A model generated the notes under the pieces. The model had not been told where the DNA came from and did no database searches. It saw nothing but the letters and a program-made list of their open reading frames with translations. The position numbers and the translations under genes were made by a program. This document shows, one piece after another, positions 48,498 to 62,844 of a stretch of DNA of 64,000 bases (positions within the stretch are counted from its first letter, which is position 1; each line of letters begins with the position of its first letter). Source of the stretch: Methanobacteriota archaeon (GTDB lineage: Archaea; Thermoplasmatota; Poseidoniia; Poseidoniales; Thalassarchaeaceae); contig PBZE01000044.1 in assembly GCA_002730095.1 (NCBI GenBank), positions 2,904-66,903 of the forward strand, written 5' to 3'.

Positions 48498-49997
48498 ATG
48501 GTCGCTGAATTGAGCAACAACGACAAGGCCATGCTAAAGGCGATGCTTACTGATTGCGATAGGGATTGGACTGTTCAAGAACTACTGGATTTAACGGGCT
48601 GGAATGACCAAGTCCATGTTGCAGGGTCAGGAAAATCCCTCAATGAATTGGGCCTAGTAAAAATTACTGAAAATCAAGTCAAGCTCATTTCATTGGATTC
48701 AGAGGGCAAGAGGGCATTAGAATTCGGACTCCTGGAGAATAGGATTTGGGATTGGTTTCTTGAGTCAGAAATAGAAGGCCGAACAATGAATAATCTCTTC
48801 AAAGCAGGTTTTCAGAGAAACGAAGCGGGTCCCGGCATAGGCCTTCTAAAGTCCATAGGGGTCAATCTTGAATCCGGTAGACTAGTGGCGGCCGATGAAG
48901 AAAAAATATCTTCAATCATCTCCAAAAGAGCCGAATTCATCTCGTCGATTTCGACTGAGTCTACTGACTCATCAGATCTAGATCAACAATTAATACAACA
49001 TTTTTCTGGTAGAAAGGGACTAATATCAATCGAGGAAAGGGTTTCGCGGACATGGGCACTGACCGAAAAGGGAGCAACAGTCGATGTTAGTGAACTATCT
49101 CACGTTGAAATGATTGGCGAATTAACGCCCGAACTGTTGAAGGGAGACTCATGGAAGGGAATCAAGTTCAAGCCATTCGACATCAATGCTCCTGCAATAA
49201 CTCCAACAGGTGGAAGGCCGCATCCAATGCAGGCGCTAATTGAGAGGATCAGGAAGGTGTTCTTGGAAATGGGGTTCTCCGAGATAGAGGGAAATTTCGT
49301 ACAGTCAGCAGGATGGAACATGGATGCCCTGTACATACCACAGTCACACCCTGCGAGAACCATGCAGGATACGTTCTACCTCTCCAATCCCGAGAGGATA
49401 GATGTCGATGAAAGGTATCTGAATTTGTGGTCCAAGGTTCATGAGCATGGACATGATACTGGTAGCAGAGGATGGGGCGGAGTATTCGATAAGGACGAAG
49501 CCCAGAAAGGCTTGCTCAGAACACACACAACAGTCAACACTGTCAAGCATATAGCAGAGAATCCAGATGTTCCTTCTCGGGTATTCGGTATTGGCAGAGT
49601 TTTCAGACAGGAGACCATCGATAGGACGCATTTACCAGAGTTCCACCAAATAGAGGGAATTATCCACGAAGAAAATGCAAATCTGCCAATGCTCATCACA
49701 ACTTTGAAGACATTCTATTCCAAAATGGGATATGATGACGTCAGGGTGAGGCCTGCCTACTTCCCTTACACGGAGCCCAGTGTCGAGGTGGATATCCTTT
49801 GGAGGGGAGAATGGCTAGAGCTGGGCGGGGCAGGAATTTTCCGTCCAGAGGTTACTGAGCCACTCGGGACCGAATGGCCCGTTTGTGCATGGGGAATGGG
49901 CCTTGAGAGGCTTGCCATGTTAGTTCTTGGACTCACTGATATAAGGCAGCTTTATCAGCCCGATTTGGAGAAATTGGGACAGATGCCAATACTCTGA
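48498..49997 (+). CDS. pheS: Phenylalanyl-tRNA synthetase alpha subunit, archaeal type
   Basis: HPMQALIERIRKVFLEMGF, QSHPARTMQDTFYL, LRTHTT, FRQETIDRTHLPEFHQIEG and GAGIFRPEV...WGMGLERLAM (class II motifs 1-3). Confidence 0.9.
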   Translation: MVAELSNNDKAMLKAMLTDCDRDWTVQELLDLTGWNDQVHVAGSGKSLNELGLVKITENQVKLISLDSEGKRALEFGLLENRIWDWFLESEIEGRTMNNLFKAGFQRNEAGPGIGLLKSIGVNLESGRLVAADEEKISSIISKRAEFISSISTESTDSSDLDQQLIQHFSGRKGLISIEERVSRTWALTEKGATVDVSELSHVEMIGELTPELLKGDSWKGIKFKPFDINAPAITPTGGRPHPMQALIERIRKVFLEMGFSEIEGNFVQSAGWNMDALYIPQSHPARTMQDTFYLSNPERIDVDERYLNLWSKVHEHGHDTGSRGWGGVFDKDEAQKGLLRTHTTVNTVKHIAENPDVPSRVFGIGRVFRQETIDRTHLPEFHQIEGIIHEENANLPMLITTLKTFYSKMGYDDVRVRPAYFPYTEPSVEVDILWRGEWLELGGAGIFRPEVTEPLGTEWPVCAWGMGLERLAMLVLGLTDIRQLYQPDLEKLGQMPIL

Positions 49998-51963
49998 CAG
50001 ATACCACTGCAAGTATCAGTAAGCCTAGCAACTCCCCTCCCGGAGGTTCCGTGGCAATGATATCACCAATAGTGCCAGAGATCTCGGAGGACTGTCCGTT
50101 TTGACCTCCTTGGCCACCGCCTCCACAACCGGCAGGAGGAGGCCCTATTCCTGGTCCCCAAGTCTCACCATATCCGGAGCAATCATCATCTCCACCTCCA
50201 TTATTATCTCCTCTGGCATCATCAATTGAAACCTCTCCCCTGTAGCAATTGATGAAGTAGGGGAATCCAATTTCCCCTTCGCCATTCTCCCAAGTGCTGT
50301 GATAGTGATAAATTCCATCTGGATGGTCAGGAGTAGCTCCAAAATGCCCATTGCAAGAATCCAGATCCCCAAGTCCCTGAACATATTCGTAATCTACGAT
50401 TCCATTGTATCCGGTCTCCCCGTCTTTCAAACGATATGAGGACTTCATTTCTGAAATATTCCCCTCTTCATCCCATCCAACGAATCCATAAATGGGATAC
50501 CCATCGAATGCGAATCCAATAATTTCGGAATGTCTCGAGAGTGTTCGAGAAGAGTTGATACTGTAGTCCATCCATGTTTGATTAGTTTCCTCGTCTGGAT
50601 GCCAGTGGGCGCAGTTAGCGTCTGCATGGTAGTGGTACGCCCCTCCAGGACCTGAATGGCCGTGACAGATTCCCAACCAAATGTGTTGCCTGTCTTCATC
50701 ATAGGCACCCTCATGTCCAGCAACTGCATCTCCACCAGGGCCATCTTCAGGCCCGAAAATTGGAACCCCATTCACCGAGAAGGCCACAGAATCTCGCTCT
50801 GGAGCCATAGTGCAACCATCTGTTGAAATGGAAGGTTCACAACCTGTCTGATTAATTGGGGTGAGTGGGATAGTCCATTCAAGGTTCTGCTCACTCGTGC
50901 AGCAACCAGGTCCAGACTCTAGGTCATGGTTGGGTATCCCATTAGACTGAATTACTATTTCCGACTCACCTATCTCAAAACTCAGTTGACAAATATGATT
51001 GTCAGACTCAGTGGTATTGTAGTCATCTACCGGACTCACTTGTTCGGTCGAGTCACAGAGAAGCACCTTCTCCCACCAAGCCTTGGAACCGGTGCTATTG
51101 TCCACTGGTTCTTCGTCATATAAGCAGGATCCATCATCTTCGGTGGCATCCTCATCATAATTCAATGCGTTTTGATCCATGCATCCCAGTACTGGCTCCG
51201 GCTCAGTCTCGTATTCACAGGAGCCATCATCCTCTTCGGCATCATCATTGTAGTTGGTCGCCTCTGAATCAGTACAGCCAGTAACTATTTCCTGAACTAC
51301 TGTAATTTTCGTAGTTACCACAGAGGAAGTCTCGGTCCAAAGGCCGCATGTTGCTTCCATAGAAATCGTGGTATTTTCTTGAATGTTGGAGAGCTCCAAT
51401 TCGAAACTACCAGTATCGGAGATTGGCAGCCCAAGGCTGGACTCCGAAATATCCCCTGAGGACCACCTAAGGGAGCAGGTGTCAACATAGTCATGGATGA
51501 CAATACCGGAAATTGGTGCCGTCCCTCCTTTTGATATCTCCAGTGTCTCAGGGGTAATAGAGACGGCTGTATTACTCTCAGAGGGATGATTGATTGAGAA
51601 TACCTTGATGAATGTAGAATCCTGTCCAAGACTATCTGTGGCTACAACACTAACTACGTGACTTCCAACATCGAGATGCGAGATATCTAGAGATGCATTT
51701 CCATTAGAATCTAGATCATTATTCACCTGCTCATCATTCAATGTAATTAGTAGGGACAGGCCTCCCATTTCCTCATCAAATACTGTAATATTAATGGTTC
51801 CTAATTCCCCCATTATCATCGAATCGGGAACATCTGAATCAATAGTAGGAGCCTTATTTACTCCTTCATCTTCTATCCCAAAGAATAGTATCCCAGTCAT
51901 CACACTAGTTATCATAAGTGCCGCCAGGAATAGTGATCTCGCCGCCCCATTGTCTTCTGCCAT
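49933..51963 (-). CDS. Surface protein: N-terminal anchor, Ig-like domains, two Cys-bounded NY...DDGSC modules, YHYH domain, Gly-rich linker and C-terminal TM helix
   Basis: Two YHYH motifs (GGAYHYHADANC, DGIYHYHSTWENG) with NGIPNH and FDGYPIYG, as in the uncharacterised YHYH family. N-terminal helix LFLAALMITSVMTGILFF. C-terminal helix LLGLLILAVVSV. The 3' end overlaps the convergent pheS by 65 nt. Confidence 0.7.
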   Translation of the reverse strand: MAEDNGAARSLFLAALMITSVMTGILFFGIEDEGVNKAPTIDSDVPDSMIMGELGTINITVFDEEMGGLSLLITLNDEQVNNDLDSNGNASLDISHLDVGSHVVSVVATDSLGQDSTFIKVFSINHPSESNTAVSITPETLEISKGGTAPISGIVIHDYVDTCSLRWSSGDISESSLGLPISDTGSFELELSNIQENTTISMEATCGLWTETSSVVTTKITVVQEIVTGCTDSEATNYNDDAEEDDGSCEYETEPEPVLGCMDQNALNYDEDATEDDGSCLYDEEPVDNSTGSKAWWEKVLLCDSTEQVSPVDDYNTTESDNHICQLSFEIGESEIVIQSNGIPNHDLESGPGCCTSEQNLEWTIPLTPINQTGCEPSISTDGCTMAPERDSVAFSVNGVPIFGPEDGPGGDAVAGHEGAYDEDRQHIWLGICHGHSGPGGAYHYHADANCAHWHPDEETNQTWMDYSINSSRTLSRHSEIIGFAFDGYPIYGFVGWDEEGNISEMKSSYRLKDGETGYNGIVDYEYVQGLGDLDSCNGHFGATPDHPDGIYHYHSTWENGEGEIGFPYFINCYRGEVSIDDARGDNNGGGDDDCSGYGETWGPGIGPPPAGCGGGGQGGQNGQSSEISGTIGDIIATEPPGGELLGLLILAVVSVRVLASVPISPNRADKAALYQ
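51118..51276 (-). repeat. Tandem coding repeat: two ~22-aa C-x-D-x2-A-x-NY-x2-DA-x2-DDGSC-x-Y modules
   Basis: CTDSEATNYNDDAEEDDGSCEY and CMDQNALNYDEDATEDDGSCLY, separated by an acidic/Pro linker. These are aa 230-282 of the YHYH protein. Confidence 0.8.
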
Positions 51964-52033: not shown

Positions 52034-53134
52034 TCACTCGTCCACTAGGGTAATCACATCTTGCAAGAAATCATCAGCATCCCAGTGGATTCCCGAATAT
52101 GCGACCCTCTTCCTCATCTCTTTCCCAACGATGAAAGTTGTTGTAGAATGGCCAACCTCATATTCTCCCAGTGACTGATCATGTGGGTCAGTTGCATCGG
52201 ATATTTCAGAATCTCCAGAACCTTCGATCACACATGAAAGCCAATCGCTACTAGGTCTTTCATATCCCTCATTGCACATGCAATGAGCGCTTTCCCCTGA
52301 GCCCATTATCCACCCATCTCCATTGCAATCGACCCCTGGTGGGGCCAAGCTAAGATTGGAGTTACTCGCAATCCAAGCCAAATGTGTATCTCCGCTGACC
52401 TCTATAGATGAGCTAGACGACTCTGATTGATTCCAACTCTCACTTTGTGAGTCCCAGTAGTGCAGAACCCACGACCAATCGCTGTCCGTACTCCAATTGC
52501 CTATTGTCCCCTCGCTAATCGGACCATCGCTGACTACGAAGTTCGAACCCGACTCGTTCAGTGAATCGGATATGAACTCTGAGCCGTTCATTCCGAACCC
52601 CTTCATATCTATTGTCGAGCTTGTGTTGTCTGGATACAGGACGACCAAACGATTCAGATTATCTTCAGGAGGCTGACTCGCCTCGATATGCTCGTTATCG
52701 ATAATTACGTTCCATGAACGATAAATCTGTTGAAGTTCAGATGCAGGTCCAGTGAGATGAGGCCATTCATAACCTCTGCTGTCAGTCCACTCCGATAGGT
52801 GGTTTATCGTGTCTCTAGCTGGGTCAATTGTCACGGATAGGATCAATACCTCTTCAGATCTATAGCCTAGATTGTCATACACATAATCAAGGTTTGAGGA
52901 TATTATCAAGCAAATATCCGGGCAGGATGTGTAGACAAAAGCAACCACAATGACCTTGCCTTGATGCTCACTGAGTCTAAAGGCATCACCATCCTGATCG
53001 AATAGCGTGAAATCAGGGGCATCTGGGGGGTCCCTGTACTCTATCCCGAGGAACTCAGGGTCTTCTCCTTGACCAAGACATCCAGATGAAAGAAGTAAGA
53101 ATCCGACGACAAATACGCCAAACCTCATTTTCAA
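52034..53134 (-). CDS. Sco1/SenC-family copper chaperone / thiol-disulfide oxidoreductase with ~170-aa insertion; lipoprotein-like signal
   Basis: KVIVVAFVYTSCPDICLI (CxxxC) and the distal EYEVGHSTTTFIVGKE (His ligand strand). They are separated by a Ser/Trp/Cys-rich insertion. N-terminal FVVGFLLLSSGC. Confidence 0.8.
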   Translation of the reverse strand: MKMRFGVFVVGFLLLSSGCLGQGEDPEFLGIEYRDPPDAPDFTLFDQDGDAFRLSEHQGKVIVVAFVYTSCPDICLIISSNLDYVYDNLGYRSEEVLILSVTIDPARDTINHLSEWTDSRGYEWPHLTGPASELQQIYRSWNVIIDNEHIEASQPPEDNLNRLVVLYPDNTSSTIDMKGFGMNGSEFISDSLNESGSNFVVSDGPISEGTIGNWSTDSDWSWVLHYWDSQSESWNQSESSSSSIEVSGDTHLAWIASNSNLSLAPPGVDCNGDGWIMGSGESAHCMCNEGYERPSSDWLSCVIEGSGDSEISDATDPHDQSLGEYEVGHSTTTFIVGKEMRKRVAYSGIHWDADDFLQDVITLVDE

Positions 53135-53862
53135 GACCCCTCCTCAATTAGAATCTTGATATCCTCCATTGCAAGTTCTACATTCCAGTCAGTATCTCCC
53201 CACCAAACCCTCTGCCTGAGTTGCTTATCCAGAATGATGGTCCCAGTAGTGTGATCGACCCAATAGTCCAGAGGATGATGTTTTACAGAAACATCTCCCT
53301 CATCACCTTCTTGCTGAGTTTCAACTCCACATCCATTATTGTCTACTTCCTCTCCTTCTGGAGTGCCCAAGCAAGTATCAAAGCCATCTGAAACCCCATC
53401 ACCATCCGAATCGGTGGAATATGTCTGAAGTCCAACATCGAACTCTAGCCATACACCCTCTAGATCTTCCACAGAACCTGTAAGATGGGGCCAATGAAGC
53501 CCCCTCTGCTCGCTGTAGTTGTGTAATACAGAGCTATTGTCCGTCCATGGGTCTACTGTGATGGTGAGTATCTCCACTGTTTCGCCATAGTCGTCTCCAA
53601 GCATATTGGAAAGATAATCCAGATTTGCACTTACTATGGGGCAGATATCCGGACATCGCGTGAATAGAAATGTGACCACAACTACCTTTCCTTGAAACTC
53701 AGAGAGCTGGAAAAGCTCACCATTTTGATCTGTCAGAACGAAATCACTAACTGGAACGGGGGGACTAATATCCTCGCCATAAAAAATGTCAGACTCGGAA
53801 TCTCCCATACAACCTGGTACCAGCAGCGTCAAAACTAGAAATAGGGCCATTTCTTTTTTCAT
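53131..53862 (-). CDS. Sco1/SenC-family copper chaperone with ~55-aa insertion containing a DSDGDGVSD calcium-binding-like motif; lipoprotein-like signal
   Basis: KVVVVTFLFTRCPDICPI (CxxxC) and the distal YWVDHTTGTIILDKQ. N-terminal LVLTLLVPGC. 4-nt overlap with the downstream Sco gene. Confidence 0.85.
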   Translation of the reverse strand: MKKEMALFLVLTLLVPGCMGDSESDIFYGEDISPPVPVSDFVLTDQNGELFQLSEFQGKVVVVTFLFTRCPDICPIVSANLDYLSNMLGDDYGETVEILTITVDPWTDNSSVLHNYSEQRGLHWPHLTGSVEDLEGVWLEFDVGLQTYSTDSDGDGVSDGFDTCLGTPEGEEVDNNGCGVETQQEGDEGDVSVKHHPLDYWVDHTTGTIILDKQLRQRVWWGDTDWNVELAMEDIKILIEEGS

Positions 53863-53863
53863 C

Positions 53864-54394
53864 TCATTTCCTCCTGATGGTGAGGGTAATAATTCCAAGA
53901 ACTACAACCAATCCAATTGGGGCCATGTATGAGTTCCCAACACTTTCAGATTTATCATTATCTTCAACCTCCCCAAATGAGTATCCAGAAGGGGGGCCAG
54001 ACTCATTGTGGACATCTTCTAATAAGATCAAGTTGAGGACATTCCACAGACTCGAATTGGAAAAAATCTCGATTTGATAGTTTCCTGCAGACCAGTTCAG
54101 AGGATCAAGCCAAAGTCTGCATTCATCCTCAGTATTGGATGAGTTCATACTGGTCGTAATACATTCGAACTCAGGATTTCCATCGGAATCAACATCTAAC
54201 ATTATGCTCCTATTATGGCTCGCTACGTTATAGAAAATCAGAGTGTCATTTTGCACCACTTCCGCAGATTCGGGCTGGAGGGCACCCTCTCTCATGATGA
54301 ATGAGAACGAGTTTGCACCATGGGCGGAAACCGTGGGCATGAGAAGAACAATCACTAGAAGAACTGTGATTATTCCCCCTCTAGGAGTTCTCAT
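53864..54394 (-). CDS. Small secreted cupredoxin-like protein with predicted N-terminal His after signal cleavage and a C-terminal TM anchor (paralog of 58198-58794)
   Basis: Signal IITVLLVIVLLMPTVSA then HGANS. LIFYNVASHNRSIMLDVDSDG resembles the first-His strand of cupredoxins. Two Cys (FEC...DEC). C-terminal helix APIGLVVVLGIITLTI then RRK. Confidence 0.6.
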   Translation of the reverse strand: MRTPRGGIITVLLVIVLLMPTVSAHGANSFSFIMREGALQPESAEVVQNDTLIFYNVASHNRSIMLDVDSDGNPEFECITTSMNSSNTEDECRLWLDPLNWSAGNYQIEIFSNSSLWNVLNLILLEDVHNESGPPSGYSFGEVEDNDKSESVGNSYMAPIGLVVVLGIITLTIRRK

Positions 54395-56367
54395 TGGTCA
54401 CTAGCCTCCGCTGTCCATAGTGGTGGATAATCGTACCTAGAGTCGCGATCTTCATCAAACTGAACTACATACACTCCAGAGACCATCTCTGAGATGAAGA
54501 CGAAACCTCTGGGGTCATATTGTAGCCCCCAGTCAAAAGGTATCATGCAAGACGCCCAACAATCGGCCATGTCATACCCCAGTTCAGTCGTGGGGTCCTC
54601 GATCCAATACGGTCCTGCTGGCAAGTAATAACCCAATGTGTGTGAAGGCGCCAATTCAGAGATTGCCTGGAAACCCCTCTCTGGTTCTGGAACGCCATTC
54701 TCCCAGACCAACTCGTCCCAGATGTGGCCATGGTCTGTAATCCAAACTCCAGCATGATAATGGGTCCAGTAGACATGCCCACTCAGTCCAGTATCGCCAT
54801 TGTGGGGGCTGAAAATATACCCTCCTGGGATGTAGTGATGAGGGTGTGAAGTTCCATCTGGCAGGGTACTCTCGCCTGGTAGCTTCCATTTGGAAACAAG
54901 GAAAGGCTGAGTTGGGTCAGTAGTATCGATAGTCCACAAATATCCAGTGTGATTGGTATTGGAGCCGTACTCCGGGGCGATGTAGGTGTAATGCCTCCAA
55001 TTGACGCCATATGTGGCATCAGAAGGTCCTATACCGCATTGTTCAGGCCATGTTTCAACTGGATCATACTCACTTATGCCGGAGCAAATCAGGTTATCTT
55101 GGGGGACCGCGTAGTGAATGTTGTCATTACCATCATTTGCATCTAGCCACACCTCAGGCGCCATGTTTGCATGACCTCCTCCCTCTGGGCCGTACCATCC
55201 GGAGTCATCCGTTGGGCACCCAAGCCATCTGCTAGTTTCAGGTGGCCATGAAATCCCCAGTGGGTCAGCAATTTGGGGCGGTTCGGAAACATCGACAAGC
55301 CTAAGTCCAGCGCCCCAGTATGACACTGCCAACAATTTTTGTTTGGTAATTGGATGGATGAAGAAAACATTGTCATGATTGAAAATGGACCCCCCACAGG
55401 TTGTCTGAGGCTCTGGCGTATACCCTCCCCAACGTATTATCTCCCTACTTGCGTTTTGTTGTTCTTCGTTGTTTGTAGGATTGAGTCCAGCGAAGTCTAT
55501 CAAGGCATAGAAAATCTGTGTTCCTTTGTAGAATGTCCCACTCGATCCTTCTACCATCTCTGGATAGGGGTCGGCACCGAACAGGAAGAGGTGACAGTCA
55601 TCTTGCCAAATTGCCGTTGGATTTGCTGGCGTCCAGTCGCAATATACATGCAAATCCTGATTGTGGAATCCAGCGGGCGGGTTATCCCATTCTGCGACCT
55701 TTATTGGGCTAGTCTTGTCCCCGACATATATCAGGTCTAGTCGATTTGCACCACTGTTGGCGTCATCATCATTGGGTATGGGGTCCAACTCAGAATTTGT
55801 CAGCTCATGATTCACCAAAACCCAGTTGTTATCAGCTGTGACTTTGATGTCTATCATTCTGGCAATTTCCGCGTAATATGTCGACAATAGCCTAATTTCG
55901 TTCGGCTTGCTGATATCCAGAATTTCGAATTGATTGTACGATGAGACGTAGGCGAAACATCCTCCCGTGCCGTCCCCATAAATCTCACAGTCATCTAGAA
56001 AGTTACCTTCTATGGCTATCTCCGAATTATCCCCGGGGGTTGGGCCGACATTCTTGAATTCATCAAGACATGGCCTACCCGCAACATTGTCTAGGTCTGC
56101 CGGCGGCTTAACATTGCCATCACAGTTCAAGTTGTGATAGTCAATCAGCTTGGCATTAGGCGTGGAAAGTCGATGTGCAAGCAAATCATTGTGTGAGTGA
56201 TTCCCATCCTCTATTTCTGTGACAGGATCTATCCACCAATCTTCTCCATCATCTCCTCCAGAGCCATCCGAGGAAGACAAGCAACCAGATAGTGGGGCCA
56301 AAATCATCAAGGAGGTCAATATCCATACCGGACGCACAAACATGAGCCTGCGGACTAAAGGAGACAT
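54391..56367 (-). CDS. Secreted LVIVD-repeat-type beta-propeller protein, histidine-rich (paralog A); lipobox LSGC
   Basis: Repeated strand motifs FEILDISKPNE, GLRLVDVSEPP, GVWITD and GVYVVQFD. Many conserved His are shared with paralog B. The start is set at ATG 56367, giving the signal MSPLVRRLMFVRPVWILTSLMILAPLSGC. Confidence 0.7.
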   Translation of the reverse strand: MSPLVRRLMFVRPVWILTSLMILAPLSGCLSSSDGSGGDDGEDWWIDPVTEIEDGNHSHNDLLAHRLSTPNAKLIDYHNLNCDGNVKPPADLDNVAGRPCLDEFKNVGPTPGDNSEIAIEGNFLDDCEIYGDGTGGCFAYVSSYNQFEILDISKPNEIRLLSTYYAEIARMIDIKVTADNNWVLVNHELTNSELDPIPNDDDANSGANRLDLIYVGDKTSPIKVAEWDNPPAGFHNQDLHVYCDWTPANPTAIWQDDCHLFLFGADPYPEMVEGSSGTFYKGTQIFYALIDFAGLNPTNNEEQQNASREIIRWGGYTPEPQTTCGGSIFNHDNVFFIHPITKQKLLAVSYWGAGLRLVDVSEPPQIADPLGISWPPETSRWLGCPTDDSGWYGPEGGGHANMAPEVWLDANDGNDNIHYAVPQDNLICSGISEYDPVETWPEQCGIGPSDATYGVNWRHYTYIAPEYGSNTNHTGYLWTIDTTDPTQPFLVSKWKLPGESTLPDGTSHPHHYIPGGYIFSPHNGDTGLSGHVYWTHYHAGVWITDHGHIWDELVWENGVPEPERGFQAISELAPSHTLGYYLPAGPYWIEDPTTELGYDMADCWASCMIPFDWGLQYDPRGFVFISEMVSGVYVVQFDEDRDSRYDYPPLWTAEASDQ

Positions 56368-56407
56368 ATCAAATTCCCGCTGTAGCGTTCGGCCCCTAAG
56401 GGGCCGA

Positions 56408-58144
56408 TCAAACCGAACCATAGGGCGCATCTATGTCCAGCTGAACAATGTACAATCCACTTGTGATGCACGAGAGATAGGTGTACCCATTATGATATTC
56501 CGCTGCCCATAGAAAAGGAGTCCAGCCGAAGTCATAAAATGAACTGTCGAGGGGAGTTCCATCCGCCCCATGTGGAAGGTGATATCCTATTGTAGACAGG
56601 CTATGGGCGTCAGTCTTGTTCCCTCCGGTCAAACCCTCGACCATCAAAGTCTCAATATCAATTACCCAGAGTCCGGCGTGATAACTGCTAAGGTAGATCC
56701 TACCGTCCCATGCCCCTCCGAAACTATTGTCTGGAAGTCCCGGGAGGCCAGTTTGGAAGATTTGAGTGTCAGCATTATGGGGGCTGAAAAGTAACCACTC
56801 CTCTCCTTCAGGGATGTGATGGTCCATTGCGAAAGGAATCTCCCAACCGTGAATTAACCGAGGAAGAAAGCGGAAATTTCCATTATTCATCTCATACGAA
56901 GTAGTATCTAATAGGTAACTCATACCTGTACCGACAGTCGTACTAAGTACTTCTGTGGCAACAATAGTGAGGTGCATTTTGCCTGTTGGATAGCCCAAAT
57001 GACTTGCATCGACCATATCGTCAATCGGTTCAGCGTAGTGAATGTATGAAGCACGTCCCCCATTCTCGTTACTAGTACAGCCACAGTCAATCTCGCCATC
57101 CCCGTCAAAATCCTCGAACTCCATCCATTGGCCCACTTCTGGTGCCCTCCAATTACAACCCAATTGCGTACCAAAAGATCCTCTACAAGCAGCAGCAATG
57201 GCTAGATATTCTGCCATGTCATTTCCAGGATGAGGGACGTCGGATACATCGAAAATCCTCAATCCTGCTTCCCAATAAGCACCGTAAACAAACGTCCTTC
57301 CAAATCTAGGGTCATTGGAATCCTCTCCCGGCCAAGTTTGAACCGTCATGTCATGTATGTATATCCATCCCCCAAGCGTCGACTCCCAGCTAACTTCGGC
57401 CTCTCCAACTTTCACTATTCTGGGGAGGTCCCCATATCCAGCGAAGTTTAGGTGGGCAACTGTTATTCCCCCGCATGCATCACCTTGCCCGACATCGCAT
57501 TGTTCGTAATCAGGGTTGGCCACGAAGATGTACCACTCGTTATCTATCATGTGTGTGTAGAGATTATGCGGGCCACTCGGGTGATCCGCGTCATACCAAG
57601 AATCAACCCAGCTCGGATTAGACTTGTCAGTAACATCAACTAGTGTCACGGTAACTTGTGCTGGGTCTTCCCATGAGCCCACATTGGGGTCCGCTGCTCC
57701 AGGGTCGACTAATTGATTCTGTACAATCACGTACTCCCTAGCATTGTATTGAAGATACTTCACATCCAAAACCTGTGTGTTGGGGTCATAATATACCCCT
57801 GTCACAGTTGTATTTTCAGGATTGGTGACGTCGACAATGTGCATTTCAGACCATCCAGCAATGTAGGCATAGGTCTTACCATCCGGCGAATCGGCTACTT
57901 GGACTTCAGCATTTCCCGGCGCGGTTAGGGGGTTGTAACTGATTGGAGCGATATTCTCTGTAAACAAGACATGCTGACTTGCATTTCTGTGGTCATGCCC
58001 TTCTGTCTGGATCAAAGGATCGACCAAAGATTCGGATTCCATGTCATTATCTAGTTCATCATTGAATAATAGAAAAGATGTTGAAATTGCAACTGCGATA
58101 CATGCGAACAACCCAGCCGCAACTAATGATCTTTCCAGGCCCAC
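56408..58144 (-). CDS. Membrane-anchored LVIVD-repeat-type beta-propeller protein, histidine-rich (paralog B)
   Basis: N-terminal anchor LVAAGLFACIAVAISTSFLLF. Strand motifs MHIVDVTNPEN, GLRIFDVSDVP, GLWVIDIE and GLYIVQLD. GTG start. Confidence 0.7.
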   Translation of the reverse strand: MGLERSLVAAGLFACIAVAISTSFLLFNDELDNDMESESLVDPLIQTEGHDHRNASQHVLFTENIAPISYNPLTAPGNAEVQVADSPDGKTYAYIAGWSEMHIVDVTNPENTTVTGVYYDPNTQVLDVKYLQYNAREYVIVQNQLVDPGAADPNVGSWEDPAQVTVTLVDVTDKSNPSWVDSWYDADHPSGPHNLYTHMIDNEWYIFVANPDYEQCDVGQGDACGGITVAHLNFAGYGDLPRIVKVGEAEVSWESTLGGWIYIHDMTVQTWPGEDSNDPRFGRTFVYGAYWEAGLRIFDVSDVPHPGNDMAEYLAIAAACRGSFGTQLGCNWRAPEVGQWMEFEDFDGDGEIDCGCTSNENGGRASYIHYAEPIDDMVDASHLGYPTGKMHLTIVATEVLSTTVGTGMSYLLDTTSYEMNNGNFRFLPRLIHGWEIPFAMDHHIPEGEEWLLFSPHNADTQIFQTGLPGLPDNSFGGAWDGRIYLSSYHAGLWVIDIETLMVEGLTGGNKTDAHSLSTIGYHLPHGADGTPLDSSFYDFGWTPFLWAAEYHNGYTYLSCITSGLYIVQLDIDAPYGSV

Positions 58145-58197: not shown

Positions 58198-58794
58198 ATG
58201 CGCGGAGCCGCGGTAGCCACACTAGCATTCTTGGTGATTCTAGCTATGCCCTTTGTGTCAGCACACGAACCCAAAGAATACACGGTTCTGTTGAAAGACG
58301 ATGGGCCGACCCCCAATGGAATTTCCTCAGGGATTTTAGTTTCATCAGATTCTCTCTTCTTCTATAACGTCGATAAGAGAGAAAATGTGACACATAGGAT
58401 CCTCATTGATGTTGAAGGAGACGGAGATTTCCAAGGCTTGGACGATATTTCAACTCCTTGGCTTAGTGGCGAATGCCAACTCAATGAGACAGGAGACAGG
58501 GTCGATCCCGATTGTCAAGTAACCAACCTACTATTGCTCGACCCATCTAATGGCTTGCTGCCTTCAAATATTTCAATGATCCATCAGATTGATGTCAATG
58601 GCACTATCGAGGAGTTTCTCTTTTCAGTCTCTTTCTCAGAAGACACTCACTCAGAGGATCAAGATTTACCAACCGGTCCATCTGAGCAAAGCGATGCAAA
58701 ACAAGATGGTGAAGATTTGCTGAAAACCTTACTGTTGCTGTCATTAGTAGGCATGTTAGTGCTTATTCCAAGATTCCTAGCTAGTGATAGCTGA
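58198..58794 (+). CDS. Small secreted cupredoxin-like protein with predicted N-terminal His and a C-terminal TM anchor (paralog of 53864-54394)
   Basis: Signal AAVATLAFLVILAMPFVSA then HEPKE. LFFYNVDKRENVTHRILIDVEGDG. Two Cys (GEC...PDC). Acidic linker. C-terminal helix LLLLSLVGMLVLI. Divergent from paralog B with a 53-nt spacer. Confidence 0.6.
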   Translation: MRGAAVATLAFLVILAMPFVSAHEPKEYTVLLKDDGPTPNGISSGILVSSDSLFFYNVDKRENVTHRILIDVEGDGDFQGLDDISTPWLSGECQLNETGDRVDPDCQVTNLLLLDPSNGLLPSNISMIHQIDVNGTIEEFLFSVSFSEDTHSEDQDLPTGPSEQSDAKQDGEDLLKTLLLLSLVGMLVLIPRFLASDS

Positions 58795-58958: not shown

Positions 58959-59783
58959 TCAATCGCCCTTCTTTCTTGCAATTTTCACGAGCTCAACAAT
59001 TTCCTTTCTCGCTTCATCACTATCCGATACTTCAGTTTTGAAAGCGATCCTAATGGGCCTCGGACCATTTTCGGTCATTGCGGACATTTCCATCCCATAT
59101 CTGTCAATACCAGTCATAGTCGCCCCAGTCGTATCTTTCGCCTTACTCATTTCCTTACATATTATGACCATTGCATCCTCATGATCTTCATTCATGTGTT
59201 CGATAATTCCGTCCGAGAAGGGCATCAATGGATCTGGCTCAGATGACCGCCAATCATTCTCTCCAACCCATGACATTCTCCCGAATCCACCAATATATCT
59301 TACAGATTTCACTTCCAATCTAAAAAAATGAAAATCACCAAAATCAGCATAGAATTTTGCATTTTCATGCTTTCCAATGAATATATCTCGCACTCTCTTT
59401 TTCTCACCATCAGGAACGATCTTGCAATCACCAATCAATGTCACTCTACCAAGCGCCAATGGGTTTTCGTCACCGCCTTCAGCAACTAGAAGTGAGGCTT
59501 TGGATTCTTTCATCAGATTTTTTGTATGCTCAGCTAATCCGCTAATTAGGAATATCGGATCGCCCGAATCTAGCGCGTAGGTTACGAATGAGCCATATGG
59601 ATATCCTTTGCCATCGGAGGAAATCGTGCATAATGTCGCAGTCCCAATTTTCTCGGCCAATGTCCTCGCCTGCTCAGCATGTGAGGATGTCGGAACATTC
59701 GGATCATACAATAGATCCTGCCTCTGTGAAGGGGTGCCCTTAGGAAGCTGATGTCGGGAGGGGGAATTATCTTCCATTGGCAT
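58959..59783 (-). CDS. PNPOx-like split-barrel plus DUF2470 protein (HugZ/HOZ-like putative heme-binding or heme-degrading protein)
   Basis: The N-terminal ARTLAEKIGTATLCTISSDGKGYPYGSFVTYALD..GDPIFLISGLAEHTKNL is a pyridoxamine-phosphate-oxidase-like FMN/heme barrel. The C-terminal IIEHMNEDHEDAM...GIDRYGMEM...IRIAF matches DUF2470. Confidence 0.65.
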   Translation of the reverse strand: MPMEDNSPSRHQLPKGTPSQRQDLLYDPNVPTSSHAEQARTLAEKIGTATLCTISSDGKGYPYGSFVTYALDSGDPIFLISGLAEHTKNLMKESKASLLVAEGGDENPLALGRVTLIGDCKIVPDGEKKRVRDIFIGKHENAKFYADFGDFHFFRLEVKSVRYIGGFGRMSWVGENDWRSSEPDPLMPFSDGIIEHMNEDHEDAMVIICKEMSKAKDTTGATMTGIDRYGMEMSAMTENGPRPIRIAFKTEVSDSDEARKEIVELVKIARKKGD

Positions 59784-59853
59784 CTATATCGCCCTCTCCA
59801 TACGTTTCTCATTATCGCCTACTATCTTTCTCTCATATCCAAACATTTTCTCA

Positions 59854-60642
59854 CTAATCCTTTGTAATTTCATCATTAATGAATATCCTGAGTATTCCAT
59901 CCTCGTCCACCACTTGCCTACTAGTTACCTCAAATACTAACTCAATATTTTCTGGAGTTAGCACATCTGATGGTTTACCATTGGAGACTATCTTTCCTTC
60001 GTGTAAAAGAATTATTCTATCTGAAAACCTCGAAGCTACATTAATATCATGTATTGCTATTAGAGCAGCCTTCCCATTTTCTTCAGAAACTATCTTTCTC
60101 AGCTCCTTCATGACTTCTATCTGATTTTTTAAATCAAGGTCACTAGTAGGCTCGTCGAACAAGAAAATATTAGGCTCCTGAGCTACGGCCTTCGCTATTA
60201 TTACTCTCTGCCTTTCGCCTCCTGAAAGCCTGTCAAATCTCCTAAACGCAAAATCAGTCAATCGCATTTTTTCAATGGTTTTACTCACTATCTTACGGTC
60301 TAACTCGCCCACGGACCAATTAATGTATGGCCTCCTGCCAAGAAGTATTACATCGAATACGTCCATAGAGAAGTTACTGGTTATTGATTGTGGGACGTAT
60401 GACATTTTCTTAGAAGTGGCAATGAGGCCTATTTCTCTTATATCCTCTCCATGAATCATAATCTTCCCTTGATCTGGTTCGAGAATCTTGTTCAGACACT
60501 TCAATAAGGTGGATTTACCCGCTCCATTCTTTCCCAAGATGGAAACTATCTCATTTTCCCTTAGAACAAAATCTACAGAATCAATAACCAAGTTATCGCC
60601 CCAACTGAATTTCAAATCCTCCACCTTCATGATTTCGCTCAT
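59854..60642 (-). CDS. ABC transporter ATP-binding protein, iron-complex/hemin/cobalamin (FepC/HmuV/BtuD) type
   Basis: Walker A GKNGAGKST, signature LSGGERQRV, Walker B IFLFDEPTSDLD, and IHDIN (H-loop). Confidence 0.85.
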   Translation of the reverse strand: MSEIMKVEDLKFSWGDNLVIDSVDFVLRENEIVSILGKNGAGKSTLLKCLNKILEPDQGKIMIHGEDIREIGLIATSKKMSYVPQSITSNFSMDVFDVILLGRRPYINWSVGELDRKIVSKTIEKMRLTDFAFRRFDRLSGGERQRVIIAKAVAQEPNIFLFDEPTSDLDLKNQIEVMKELRKIVSEENGKAALIAIHDINVASRFSDRIILLHEGKIVSNGKPSDVLTPENIELVFEVTSRQVVDEDGILRIFINDEITKD

Positions 60643-61745
60643 CAGTGGCCCCCCCTATTAGTTAGCAGCAGATAGATGAAAAGTGGCCCTCCTACAACTG
60701 AAAGCATCAATCCAACTGGGAGGACCACAGGTGCTATGATGGTCCTCCCGATGGTATCGGCTATCAGCATCAATAAGGCACCAAAAATAGCCGAGCAAGG
60801 TATTAACTTACGGTAATCATTTCCTATGATCAGTCTACTCATGTGAGGGGCAGCAAGTCCAACAAATCCAATCATCCCAGTGAAGGAGATAATCAAAGCG
60901 GTAAGTAGTGAGGAAAGTACGAGTATTTTTTTCCGCGTGTCAACAGGATCCACTCCCGTTGAAATTGCAAACTCATCTCCGCCTATTGATAGTGAGTTAA
61001 GATCCCATGACCATTCGAGAGCTTTAGGAACTAGAAATATGACTACTCCTCCGATTAGCCAAACTTCACGCGAGTCTACTCTGGCCAAGCTACCAAATGA
61101 CCAATGAGTCAATTGGGAGAGCTCTTCCGCAGTAGCAAAGTATACCATGGTCTGAACTATTGCTCCTGCAATGAATGTAATGGCGATACCAACAAGAATA
61201 TACGACTCCGCAGTAACTCCTCTTACGCTACCAAGTTTGATTATTATGTAAACGACAAATAGCGCGAAAAAGAACGCATTCAAGACCAGATCAGAACCTA
61301 CAAACGAAATTACCGGTATGGCCGGGATGATCTCTGTAACTACTGACCAGAGGACTGCTAATAACTCACTTACAAATGTCAAATCGAGGAAAATAGCGAA
61401 AGCTGCCCCCAACGCTGCGCCCGAGGCCACTCCCAGTGTCAGGGGAGATACTAGTGGATTTCCCAGCGCGCCTTGCATCAGGGCCCCAGCTACAGCTAAT
61501 CCGATTCCAGCTATGATTGCAAAAACTACTCTCGGAACTCTATACTCCCATAGGATCAGCCTCTGAATTTCACTCCCTTCTTCTATCTGAAGTAAAATCT
61601 TGGCCGTAGTGAGCATGTCAAGGTTGACTGAGGACCCCTGTCCCAATGCGAAAATCGCGATTACGATGGTGCATAATCCGAGAAGGAGAATTTTGACAAC
61701 GTGGTCACGGTTCTTATCCTCGTATTTACTTGATAGTGAATCCAT
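60642..61745 (-). CDS. FecCD-family ABC permease (iron-complex/hemin/cobalamin type)
   Basis: About 10 TM helices with RVVFAIIAGIGLAVAGALMQG..GNPLVSPLTLGVASGA and the C-terminal GRTIIAPVVLPVGLMLSVVGGPLFIYLL, typical of the BtuC/HmuU fold. Start at ATG 61745 (alternative 61787). Confidence 0.85.
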   Translation of the reverse strand: MDSLSSKYEDKNRDHVVKILLLGLCTIVIAIFALGQGSSVNLDMLTTAKILLQIEEGSEIQRLILWEYRVPRVVFAIIAGIGLAVAGALMQGALGNPLVSPLTLGVASGAALGAAFAIFLDLTFVSELLAVLWSVVTEIIPAIPVISFVGSDLVLNAFFFALFVVYIIIKLGSVRGVTAESYILVGIAITFIAGAIVQTMVYFATAEELSQLTHWSFGSLARVDSREVWLIGGVVIFLVPKALEWSWDLNSLSIGGDEFAISTGVDPVDTRKKILVLSSLLTALIISFTGMIGFVGLAAPHMSRLIIGNDYRKLIPCSAIFGALLMLIADTIGRTIIAPVVLPVGLMLSVVGGPLFIYLLLTNRGGH

Positions 61746-61749
61746 TATT

Positions 61750-62844
61750 TCACCCAGATATTTCGTATTCGCATACGAATTTACCAACTCGTTCTATTCC
61801 ATGATAATCAGTGAAATAAGAATCTAGGTAGCTATCAGGCTCAATGTCCTCAAACAAATCTGGATGTAACATCTTAGCCAAGGTGGGAAGTCCATGAATC
61901 ATCATAGGGCCCGCAAATTCCCCAGACATAATGGCCATGTTACCGTTAACCACAGCTGCCATTCCGTCAAATCCAGGCCTGTCTGCTATGAATTCCATAT
62001 GGGATTTACATCTGTCTTCTTCGTCAAAAGAATCAAATCCTATATCAAAAGTTATTCCGTCAAACATTAACATATCTGGATTAGAATCCAAGATAGCTTC
62101 CATGTCGACGTGTGTGGTGTGACCAGGTAAGTTTGAGAAAACATTCACCCCTCCCGCCATGTGTATGATGTCATTCCACTGAGAGGTTCCAGTCAGTACC
62201 ACTGGGTCCCTAGTAAGAGAAGCATGGTGTTCCATTACGATGCTTGGCCTACTTGAGTCATCTATGCTGCCAATCCTCGAGCTTACCATGGCTTCGATTT
62301 CATCGAAATTATCGAACAATGATTTCGCTTCTGTCTGCTTTCCGAACAATTCGGCAATAACGCCAATCTCGTACCTAAGATTATCATATTTGTAGAAATC
62401 CAAGCCCATCACCTTTATCCCAGCTGGCTCTAGTTTTTCCCGAATCGCATCTGTGTCGACCATCCCGTTAGTAGCGAATACGATATACAAGTCTGGCCTC
62501 GAATCAAGTAGTGCCTCGAAGTCAATTTCCGAGTGCGCACTTTTCTGGATCATAGGCGTATCTGCATATTCGGGCCATAGAGTTGATCCATGGAAATCAC
62601 CCGATACCCCAACGACAATTTCCGAATCAACATTCAGCATTCTCATCACCGTCGCAGCGTATGTGTTGGTTATAGCAACACGATCTGGGGAGCCTGAAAA
62701 TTTGTGATTTACCCCATTTGAATCAGTAACTTCGATATTGAATTCTGCAGCCTCCATCGTCCCATCTTCAGTAAATTGATAAGCACTAAGGGAAAAGGTG
62801 ACTATTATCGCGATCTGAATCAACGCTATACTGTATTTCTGCAA
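61750..62844 (-). CDS. Periplasmic-binding-protein type 2 (FepB/HmuT/BtuF-like) substrate-binding protein
   Basis: N-terminal anchor IALIQIAIIVTFSL. RVAITNTYAATVMRML, PDLYIVF and DMLMFDG. Operon position upstream of the FecCD permease. Confidence 0.75.
   Translation of the reverse strand: MQKYSIALIQIAIIVTFSLSAYQFTEDGTMEAAEFNIEVTDSNGVNHKFSGSPDRVAITNTYAATVMRMLNVDSEIVVGVSGDFHGSTLWPEYADTPMIQKSAHSEIDFEALLDSRPDLYIVFATNGMVDTDAIREKLEPAGIKVMGLDFYKYDNLRYEIGVIAELFGKQTEAKSLFDNFDEIEAMVSSRIGSIDDSSRPSIVMEHHASLTRDPVVLTGTSQWNDIIHMAGGVNVFSNLPGHTTHVDMEAILDSNPDMLMFDGITFDIGFDSFDEEDRCKSHMEFIADRPGFDGMAAVVNGNMAIMSGEFAGPMMIHGLPTLAKMLHPDLFEDIEPDSYLDSYFTDYHGIERVGKFVCEYEISG

Follow-up and report, generated by a model that had tools for sequence, protein, structure and literature searches.

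What does a small, exported protein that is predicted to begin with a histidine do when its gene lies between a gene for a beta-propeller lipoprotein (LVIVD1) and two genes for SCO1/SenC (Sco) chaperones? This question is raised by a 64,000-nucleotide stretch of archaeal DNA (positions 2,904 to 66,903 of contig PBZE01000044.1, assembly GCA_002730095.1, Thalassarchaeaceae), hereafter the window, and by the gene at its positions 53864 to 54394, hereafter the target. A first reading of the letters (the sequence-only reading) had described the target and a paralog as anchored, cupredoxin-like proteins whose mature N-terminus would be His, and had proposed a histidine brace, a type of copper site found in lytic polysaccharide monooxygenases (LPMOs), the particulate methane and ammonia monooxygenases (pMMO/AMO), CopC, YcnI, PmoF and fungal Bim1/X325. 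Combining residue conservation, a structure model and comparison with known copper proteins, we lean towards the view that the target is a membrane-tethered Cu(II) chaperone of the histidine-brace type. The core of the sequence-only reading (a mature His1, a role in copper, a cupredoxin-like fold) holds up well, but its choice of the partner histidine does not.

Target and paralog are real, transcribed genes of one unannotated family (target versus paralog by BLASTP, E = 2e-10): neither Pfam nor NCBIfam contains a family for either protein, and searches of PDB chains by sequence, with the target and with two family profiles, gave no meaningful match. Conservation was read from three alignments: A1, the target's subfamily; A2, both subfamilies mixed; and A3, 64 diverse full-length members with a mean column identity of 16%. 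Close relatives numbered 34 for the target and 117 for the paralog, all of them from marine metagenomes and none functionally named, and a profile of both subfamilies retrieved 128 representatives at E <= 0.001 when 1.84 billion cluster representatives were searched. Counts of representatives given below refer to clusters at 50% identity. The survey of archaeal genomes that had been suggested was run with patterns drawn from A1, on one genome per species, and yielded 78 loci, all of them in Marine Group II (MGII; Candidatus Poseidoniales) and distributed over the Poseidoniaceae and Thalassarchaeaceae. The family is undescribed and is so far known from MGII archaea only. One homolog of the paralog, P0126, is labelled 'Gammaproteobacteria bacterium' in NCBI; since everything else points to MGII archaea as the source of the family, its contig was probably mis-binned.

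The target precursor consists of a signal peptide, the cupredoxin-like domain, an acidic linker, a C-terminal transmembrane anchor and an RRK tail (Table 1). Its N-terminus reads MRTPRGGIITVLLVIVLLMPTVSA followed by HGANSFSFIMR, and that of the paralog reads MRGAAVATLAFLVILAMPFVSA followed by HEPKEY, with cleavage predicted between the two parts in each case; as had been pointed out, His directly follows ...VSA in both proteins (HGANS in the target, ...ILAMPFVSA / HEPKE in the paralog). Conservation strongly supports this N-terminal His. His25 is invariant in A1 and A2 and present in 62 of the 64 members of A3, the remaining two having Asp; all 93 representatives that align over the N-terminus have His at profile position 1, and all complete members of both subfamilies hold it at +1, far beyond chance. 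In the same 93 representatives, the residue at -1 is Ala in 82, Gly in 8, Ser in 2 and Thr in 1, that at -3 is A, V, T, S or G in 91, and a hydrophobic core precedes the cleavage site in 90. Within A3, a small residue occupies -1 in all 64 members and -2 in only 45 of 62, so that A/H is the sole family-wide cleavage site under the -3/-1 rule. We infer that signal peptidase would cut after Ala24, directly before the His as predicted earlier, and that His25 would become mature residue 1. We rejected a cut one residue further upstream, where some members have Q, H, Y or D. Twin-arginine (Tat), lipobox and class III (pilin-type) signals were likewise rejected for the target, as none of them is conserved in the family sequences.

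Only six columns of A3 are conserved in at least 90% of the members: A24, H25, C78, C92, D127 and H129. The Cys pair, which had been noticed in both proteins, runs through all of the diverse relatives, and Cys78 and Cys92 probably form a disulfide. Asp127 and His129 belong to a D-x-H motif that had gone unremarked in the sequence-only reading, with Asp in 60 of 61 and His in 63 of 63 members of A3. Among the representatives, the corresponding counts are 69 of 71 for Asp and 71 of 71 for His, and all 54 that span both positions have the N-terminal His together with that of the motif. D-x-H lies approximately 103-127 residues past A/H in all complete members of the two subfamilies; the four sequences without it resemble truncated or frameshifted fragments. 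The sequence-only reading had postulated a second invariant His and placed it at H60, in a strand. Such a His does exist, but it is H129 and not H60: position 60 is Q, Y, H, L or K within the target's own subfamily, its column in A3 has no His majority (a neighboring column has His in 29 of 64), and the strand His, said to be invariant in both paralogs, is so only in the subfamily of the paralog (THRILID). H60 was therefore rejected as a brace partner on conservation, and H129 with D127 was taken instead. With D127-x-H129 as the partner, the proposed ligands form a CopC-type His1/Asp/His set and not a remnant of a type-1 site.

What follows the D-x-H motif varies among the family members. At least three His within 30 residues past it were counted in seven representatives, one of which is a frameshifted fragment. 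A His-rich acidic stretch directly after the motif is seen in the distant members P0174, P0176, P0186, P0224, P0239 and P0274 (e.g., SDSHDTEHSSHSHEGGHDE) and, by eye, a similar one in P0231; by analogy, these stretches may be compared to the metal-capturing tails of some chaperones. A C-x4-C motif past D-x-H is found in 16 representatives. The subfamily concerned (P0189, P0194, P0195, P0198, P0199, P0201, P0222, P0226 and others) carries it approximately 10 residues after D-x-H, for example as GDCFGIGCE, whereas the target reads GYSFG there. The motif could form a second site, with thiolate ligands and perhaps for Cu(I), or a linker disulfide. Both kinds of addition would fit a metal-handling site at this place. 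A C-terminal hydrophobic anchor was found in 63 of 70 representatives. The transmembrane helix and the LDPxN block are, as had been described, common to target and paralog, the block being more weakly conserved in A3 than in A1.

For the mature domain of the target, approximately 110 residues, AlphaFold2 (AF2) with an alignment of 20 sequences returned an eight-stranded model with a mean predicted local distance difference test (pLDDT) score of 87.5, a pLDDT of 83 for mature residues 1-10 and a predicted template modeling (pTM) score of 0.78. The top 50 matches of this model in the PDB, determined with Foldseek, are nearly all cupredoxin domains (E approximately 1e-5, TM-scores 0.5-0.68), in agreement with the cupredoxin-like character assigned earlier. 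They include 4hcf, a Cupredoxin_1 protein of Bacillus anthracis and the top match, as well as CuA domains, two-domain laccases, Brucella FtrB (8vuk), the EfeO N-terminal domain (7wgu) and a Nitrosopumilus cupredoxin (5fc9). At the sequence level, 11 of the 64 members matched Pfam Cupredoxin_1 (PF13473), all below threshold (best E = 0.0024), and the target did not. Judged by the model, the target would be a cupredoxin Greek-key beta-sandwich whose nearest fold relatives belong to the Cup-I/II (Cupredoxin_1) group. The type-1 ligands are absent, as had been stated for both proteins: no Cys/His/Met loop is present between strands 7 and 8, both Cys are on strands 5 and 6, and a His on strand 4 occurs in only 29 of the 64 members of A3.

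In the AF2 model, His1 (H25) is located four residues ahead of strand 1, mature D26 (D50) in the turn between strands 2 and 3, mature D43-x-D-x-D-G48 (D67-G72) between strands 4 and 5, mature L72-D-P-x-N76 (L96-N100) between strands 6 and 7, and mature D103-x-H105 (D127-H129) two to four residues past strand 8. Given the alternation of strands in a cupredoxin-like fold, all five of these elements would share one pole of the domain. That pole would be opposite the type-1 site, at the end where the chain leaves for the membrane anchor.

These residues could also be read as parts of a structural surface protein that binds no metal, or only Ca2+, for example an adaptor that tethers the LVIVD propellers, with His25 and His129 serving folding or contacts. 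The DxDxDG loop of the target, which by its motif resembles Ca2+-binding loops and is possibly a structural Ca2+ site, would suit such a protein, as would the many N-x-S/T sequons, which suggest glycosylation at the cell surface. However, at 16% mean identity the near-invariant mature residues other than Cys are a first-residue His and a D-x-H, which is hard to explain in this way, and neither the segments, His-rich or with C-x4-C, that relatives add behind D-x-H nor the linkage to Sco genes would be accounted for. We consider a purely structural role very unlikely.

The linkage to Sco genes is strict. In 78 of 78 loci the gene order is paralog (divergent), then LVIVD2 - LVIVD1 - target - ScoA - ScoB - YHYH; where a locus lies on a cut contig, the remaining part agrees with this order, and YHYH is seen where the locus is long enough. 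The Sco-containing operon that had been invoked in favor of copper, in which the target has an LVIVD gene on one side and two Sco genes on the other, is thus kept throughout, and both Sco proteins retain the CxxxC motif (CPDIC) and the D/G-H-T/S histidine. Contigs of four marine metatranscriptomes cover the operon at 95-100% identity and bridge the LVIVD1/target, target/ScoA and ScoA/ScoB junctions. Across 52 MGII species the identity of LVIVD2 is 76-94%, and that of the target in the same loci approximately 40-76%.

To place the putative metal site, we compared the family with known copper proteins. In CopC of Pseudomonas fluorescens (PfCopC), Cu(II) is bound by His1, Asp83 and His85 (PMC7529816). 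The likeness, which exists at the motif level only, lies in the same ligand set in the same order, His1 followed by D-x-H approximately 80-105 residues on; furthermore, both proteins are small beta-sandwiches, and CopC acts in copper trafficking, as is proposed for the target family. No Pfam match to CopC was obtained for the target, the paralog or the 64 members of A3, the family profile had no PDB match, and hhalign of that profile against PsCopC (PDB-verified sequence) gave a probability of 0.2%. The target family also differs from CopC in that its D-x-H follows the last strand and leads into a linker and a transmembrane anchor, in that the conserved cluster has no CopD, and in the lack of a Met-rich Cu(I) site.

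N-terminal His sites are not confined to copper: DUF4198 proteins use them to bind Ni2+, and related families to bind other metals (PMC12537917). The site of the target might accordingly take Ni, Co, Zn or Fe, like the recently described 'anglerase' and DUF4198 proteins, which would agree with the His-rich tails of some members, as these are not metal-specific, and with the metal/heme ABC (ATP-binding cassette) importer nearby. We consider this distinctly unlikely, given that the His1/Asp/His set equals the high-affinity Cu(II) site of CopC, that Sco with an intact CxxxC and His is copper-specific and universally linked to the target, and that the 64 members have no Pfam match to DUF4198, DUF6702 or HupE/UreJ.

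The closest parallel in overall layout is YcnI (DUF1775). YcnI of Bacillus subtilis combines a signal peptide, His1 and a cupredoxin fold with a transmembrane helix at the C-terminus, and binds Cu(II) (PMC8424229); it swaps Cu(II) with the CopC domain of YcnJ, also a tethered His-brace domain, and aids growth under copper limitation (PMC12362106, PMC13344008). The target has the same extracytoplasmic arrangement, its His1 being predicted, and the genes of both proteins are part of copper-trafficking operons. In contrast, the site of YcnI is a mono-His brace of His1, Glu and Trp, while the target family has His1 and Asp-x-His, in which no Trp is conserved and no Glu reaches 90%. The top 50 structural matches of the target do not include YcnI, and DUF1775 matched neither target nor paralog at E <= 0.1, nor any of the 64 members at E <= 1. 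Furthermore, YcnI is bacterial and has CopC/CopD partners, whereas the target family is archaeal and accompanied by Sco and LVIVD proteins. In our reading, the target works like YcnI or CopC, yet it is a member of neither family.

The CuB site of PmoB, a subunit of two cupredoxin-like barrels, consists of His33 (amine and imidazole), His137 and His139 (PMC12576850). Its spacing from His1 to the further ligands, approximately 104-106 residues, is near the 102 and 104 of the target, but hhalign of the family profile against PmoB residues 33-186 (PDB-verified sequence) gave a probability of 0.16%, so that the PmoB/AmoB spacing serves as an analogy only. PmoB also differs in having H-x-H with further strands after it, and in being a subunit of a membrane monooxygenase. 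Fungal Bim1/X325 proteins are C-terminally anchored at the cell surface (by glycosylphosphatidylinositol), have a His brace with Asp and are implicated in copper acquisition, and in these respects resemble the target; however, they are eukaryotic, have an LPMO-like fold and an unrelated sequence, and the positions of Asp and internal His are swapped relative to CopC. Transport proteins (CopC, X325/Bim1), rather than LPMO-type catalysts, typically have an Asp in the fourth equatorial position (PMC7529816, PMC10952591). The conserved Asp beside the second His of the target family recalls the transport proteins and sets the family apart from LPMOs, for which no Pfam match was found in the 64 members and no representative among the top structural matches. 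PCuAC (DUF461), with the motif H(M)x10Mx21HxM, likewise had no Pfam match in the 64 members, and A3 contains no conserved Met.

The best structural matches of the target, the Cup-I/Cup-II proteins (EfeO N-terminal domain, FtrB, 4hcf), raise the alternative of a redox function. FtrB is a Cup-II cupredoxin without type-1 ligands that binds Cu2+ through C-terminal D118 and H121; D118A abolishes binding, and FtrB has been proposed to be a Cu2+-dependent ferrous oxidase (PMC11966278). By this alternative, the His1/Asp/His copper center would be redox-active or catalytic, and the target would assist the LVIVD propellers in electron transfer or as an oxidase, or form a ferroxidase module like FtrB/EfeO. 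The ties between the family and the propellers could be so understood: the LVIVD1 stop overlaps the target start (ATGA), coupling the two in translation, and distant members of the paralog subfamily (28-36% identity) are still divergent beside LVIVD2 orthologs (62-72% identity). An iron/heme uptake cluster (Peripla_BP_2, FecCD, ABC, HugZ-like) adjoins the window locus and several related loci as well. However, heme/iron genes are absent beside the cluster elsewhere, e.g., in L001, and no Ftr1/EfeU-type permease is present in the cluster, whereas FtrB and EfeO belong to iron-uptake systems with Ftr1-type permeases, are soluble or fused and have no conserved N-terminal His. FtrB moreover has D-x-x-H and micromolar affinity, as opposed to the D-x-H of the target family. 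As the Asp is of the kind typical of transport proteins, and as two Sco chaperones of the same operon suit metal delivery better, we regard a redox or catalytic center as unlikely.

Our preferred reading, a tethered Cu(II) chaperone, can be set out as follows. After Sec export, cleavage at A24/H25 would free the His1 amine, and the His1 amine and imidazole, His129 and Asp127 would build a CopC-type histidine brace for Cu(II). This brace would lie at the pole nearer to the membrane, across the domain from the canonical type-1 site. The target would capture or buffer Cu(II) at the cell surface and pass the metal, perhaps with exchange between target and paralog, to the two co-encoded Sco lipoproteins; the two tethered paralogs may in this respect recall the pair of YcnI and the YcnJ CopC domain. 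Sco would in turn deliver the metal to its clients, the His-rich LVIVD propellers and/or a respiratory oxidase. Capture or buffering with hand-over to Sco appears to be the simplest role because two Sco proteins are encoded downstream.

Several points weigh against this proposal. The pLDDT is only 68 for mature residues 101-110, the area of D127 and H129, and the distant representatives P0232, P0239, P0259 and P0274 have A/D in place of A/H, Asp replacing His at +1 (the last three have additional His near the C-terminal motif). Since there is no sequence relation to CopC, PmoB, YcnI or PCuAC, the putative Cu site would have to be convergent, and the conserved pole, with its acidic DxDxDG loop, could serve Ca2+ or another function. 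The metatranscriptome contigs may include contaminating DNA, carried over in the libraries. Finally, the conserved cluster contains no copper transporter, and a motif scan of the 64-kb window found no CuA or type-1 client.

Candidate clients are suggested by the cluster itself. Ten His are invariant in common between LVIVD1 and LVIVD2 orthologs (H50, H52, H58, H193, H264, H369, H391, H442, H456 and H489 in LVIVD2 numbering), which suggests a multi-His metal center in the propellers and hence makes them candidate client cuproenzymes. An AF2 model of LVIVD2 (pLDDT 66, pTM 0.74) had generic propellers as its only structural matches, sequence searches of the PDB with LVIVD1, LVIVD2 and YHYH gave no match, and the homolog search with LVIVD2 returned only close, unnamed MGII orthologs. 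Searches of the literature for LVIVD, for YHYH and for copper in Poseidoniales gave nothing informative on the function of these neighbors. A more speculative extension, which we hold to be doubtful, is that the seven-gene cluster, universal in MGII, is a new extracellular copper enzyme system, the LVIVD propellers being novel cuproenzymes with metal centers assembled by the two Sco proteins and two histidine-brace cupredoxins. The target would then represent, as the first example from archaea, a new class of His1/Asp/His copper chaperones of independent evolutionary origin.

MGII archaea are among the most abundant archaea of ocean surface waters, in which copper is in short supply and bound by organic ligands, and to our knowledge none has been cultured. 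The operon, invariant and transcribed, joins the target with two Sco proteins and two extremely conserved, His-rich propellers and so offers a testable route to copper acquisition and distribution in this group and to the role of the propellers. If the chaperone reading is correct, the CopC ligand set has apparently been reinvented independently on a Cup-I/II-like cupredoxin scaffold with YcnI-like tethering. What appears to be new, judging from sequences and model, is this combination: a Cup-I/II-like scaffold, a CopC-type His1/Asp/His motif, tethering of the YcnI type and an invariant surface-protein operon. The signature of the family (signal-A/H ... C ... C ... D-x-H, linker, transmembrane helix) is simple enough for a new family model.

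Table 1. Positions in the window of the target, its parts, the paralog and the neighboring genes (residues are numbered in the precursor).
Feature	Positions	Strand	Details
Target gene	53864-54394	-	176-residue precursor; from the open reading frame (ORF) list and the sequence; covered by metatranscriptome contigs
Sec-type signal peptide, residues 1-24, ending V-S-A	54323-54394	-	Positive n-region, hydrophobic core, small residues at -3 and -1
His25 codon (cat)	54320-54322	-	Predicted mature residue 1; proposed bidentate Cu ligand (amine and imidazole)
Mature cupredoxin-like domain, residues 25-137, eight beta-strands	53984-54322	-	AF2 and Foldseek
DxDxDG loop, D67-V-D69-S-D71-G72 (DVDSDG), strands 4/5	54179-54196	-	A3: D67 55/64, D71 52/59, G72 52/59
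Cys78 (54161-54163) and Cys92 (54119-54121), strands 5 and 6	54119-54163	-	64/64 each in A3
L96-D97-P98-L99-N100 block, loop between strands 6 and 7	54095-54109	-	L96, D97 and P98 invariant in A1
Asp127-Val128-His129 (gat gtc cac), D-x-H right after the last strand	54008-54016	-	Would supply the other half of the Cu(II) site
C-terminal transmembrane anchor, approximately residues 156-173, then RRK	53876-53929	-	Read in the sequence
Paralog, 198 residues	58198-58794	+	His23 codon 58264-58266; D149-T-H151 at 58642-58650
LVIVD2, 578-residue beta-propeller	56408-58144	-	Pfam LVIVD
LVIVD1, 679-residue beta-propeller lipoprotein	54391-56430	-	Pfam LVIVD
ScoA (SCO1/SenC)	53131-53898	-	Pfam SCO1-SenC, E = 4.6e-26; lipobox-like signal, CPDIC, VDHT His, acidic insert resembling thrombospondin type 3 (TSP3)
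ScoB (SCO1/SenC)	52034-53134	-	Pfam SCO1-SenC, E = 4.5e-25; CPDIC, GHS His, Cys-rich insert
YHYH-domain surface protein, last gene of the cluster	49933-51963	-	Pfam YHYH, E = 7.5e-35
HugZ-like heme oxygenase (CREG/PNPOx and DUF2470) and ABC importer, adjoining the cluster	58959-62844	-	

The paralog, which is transcribed divergently from LVIVD2, was accepted with its start at 58198 because this matches the 198-residue length of most of its 117 homologs. Its subfamily has two extra invariant His that are absent from the target subfamily, one in THRILID, at the start of strand 4 and at the canonical type-1 His position, and one in M-x-H-Q, on strand 7. With these two further His, the putative metal site of the paralog may have more nitrogen ligands than that of the target.

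The ScoA ORF as listed starts at a TTG inside the target (53862-53898, minus strand). An ATG (MKKEMALF...) occurs right after the target stop, behind AGGAGG, and is likely the true start; its position directly after the stop, together with the AGGAGG, points to tight translational coupling. The TSP3-like insert of ScoA, DSDGDGVSDGFD, and the DVDSDG loop of the target both resemble Ca2+-binding loops, in two surface proteins of one operon. In ScoB, approximately 200 residues are inserted after the CxxxC region and ahead of the conserved His, including a Cys-rich stretch like that of epidermal growth factor, CNGDGWIMGSGESAHCMCNEGYERPSSDWLSC. The importer ORFs beside the cluster in the window are approximately the same size as the ABC_tran, FecCD and Peripla_BP_2 genes of the related loci L004-L006.

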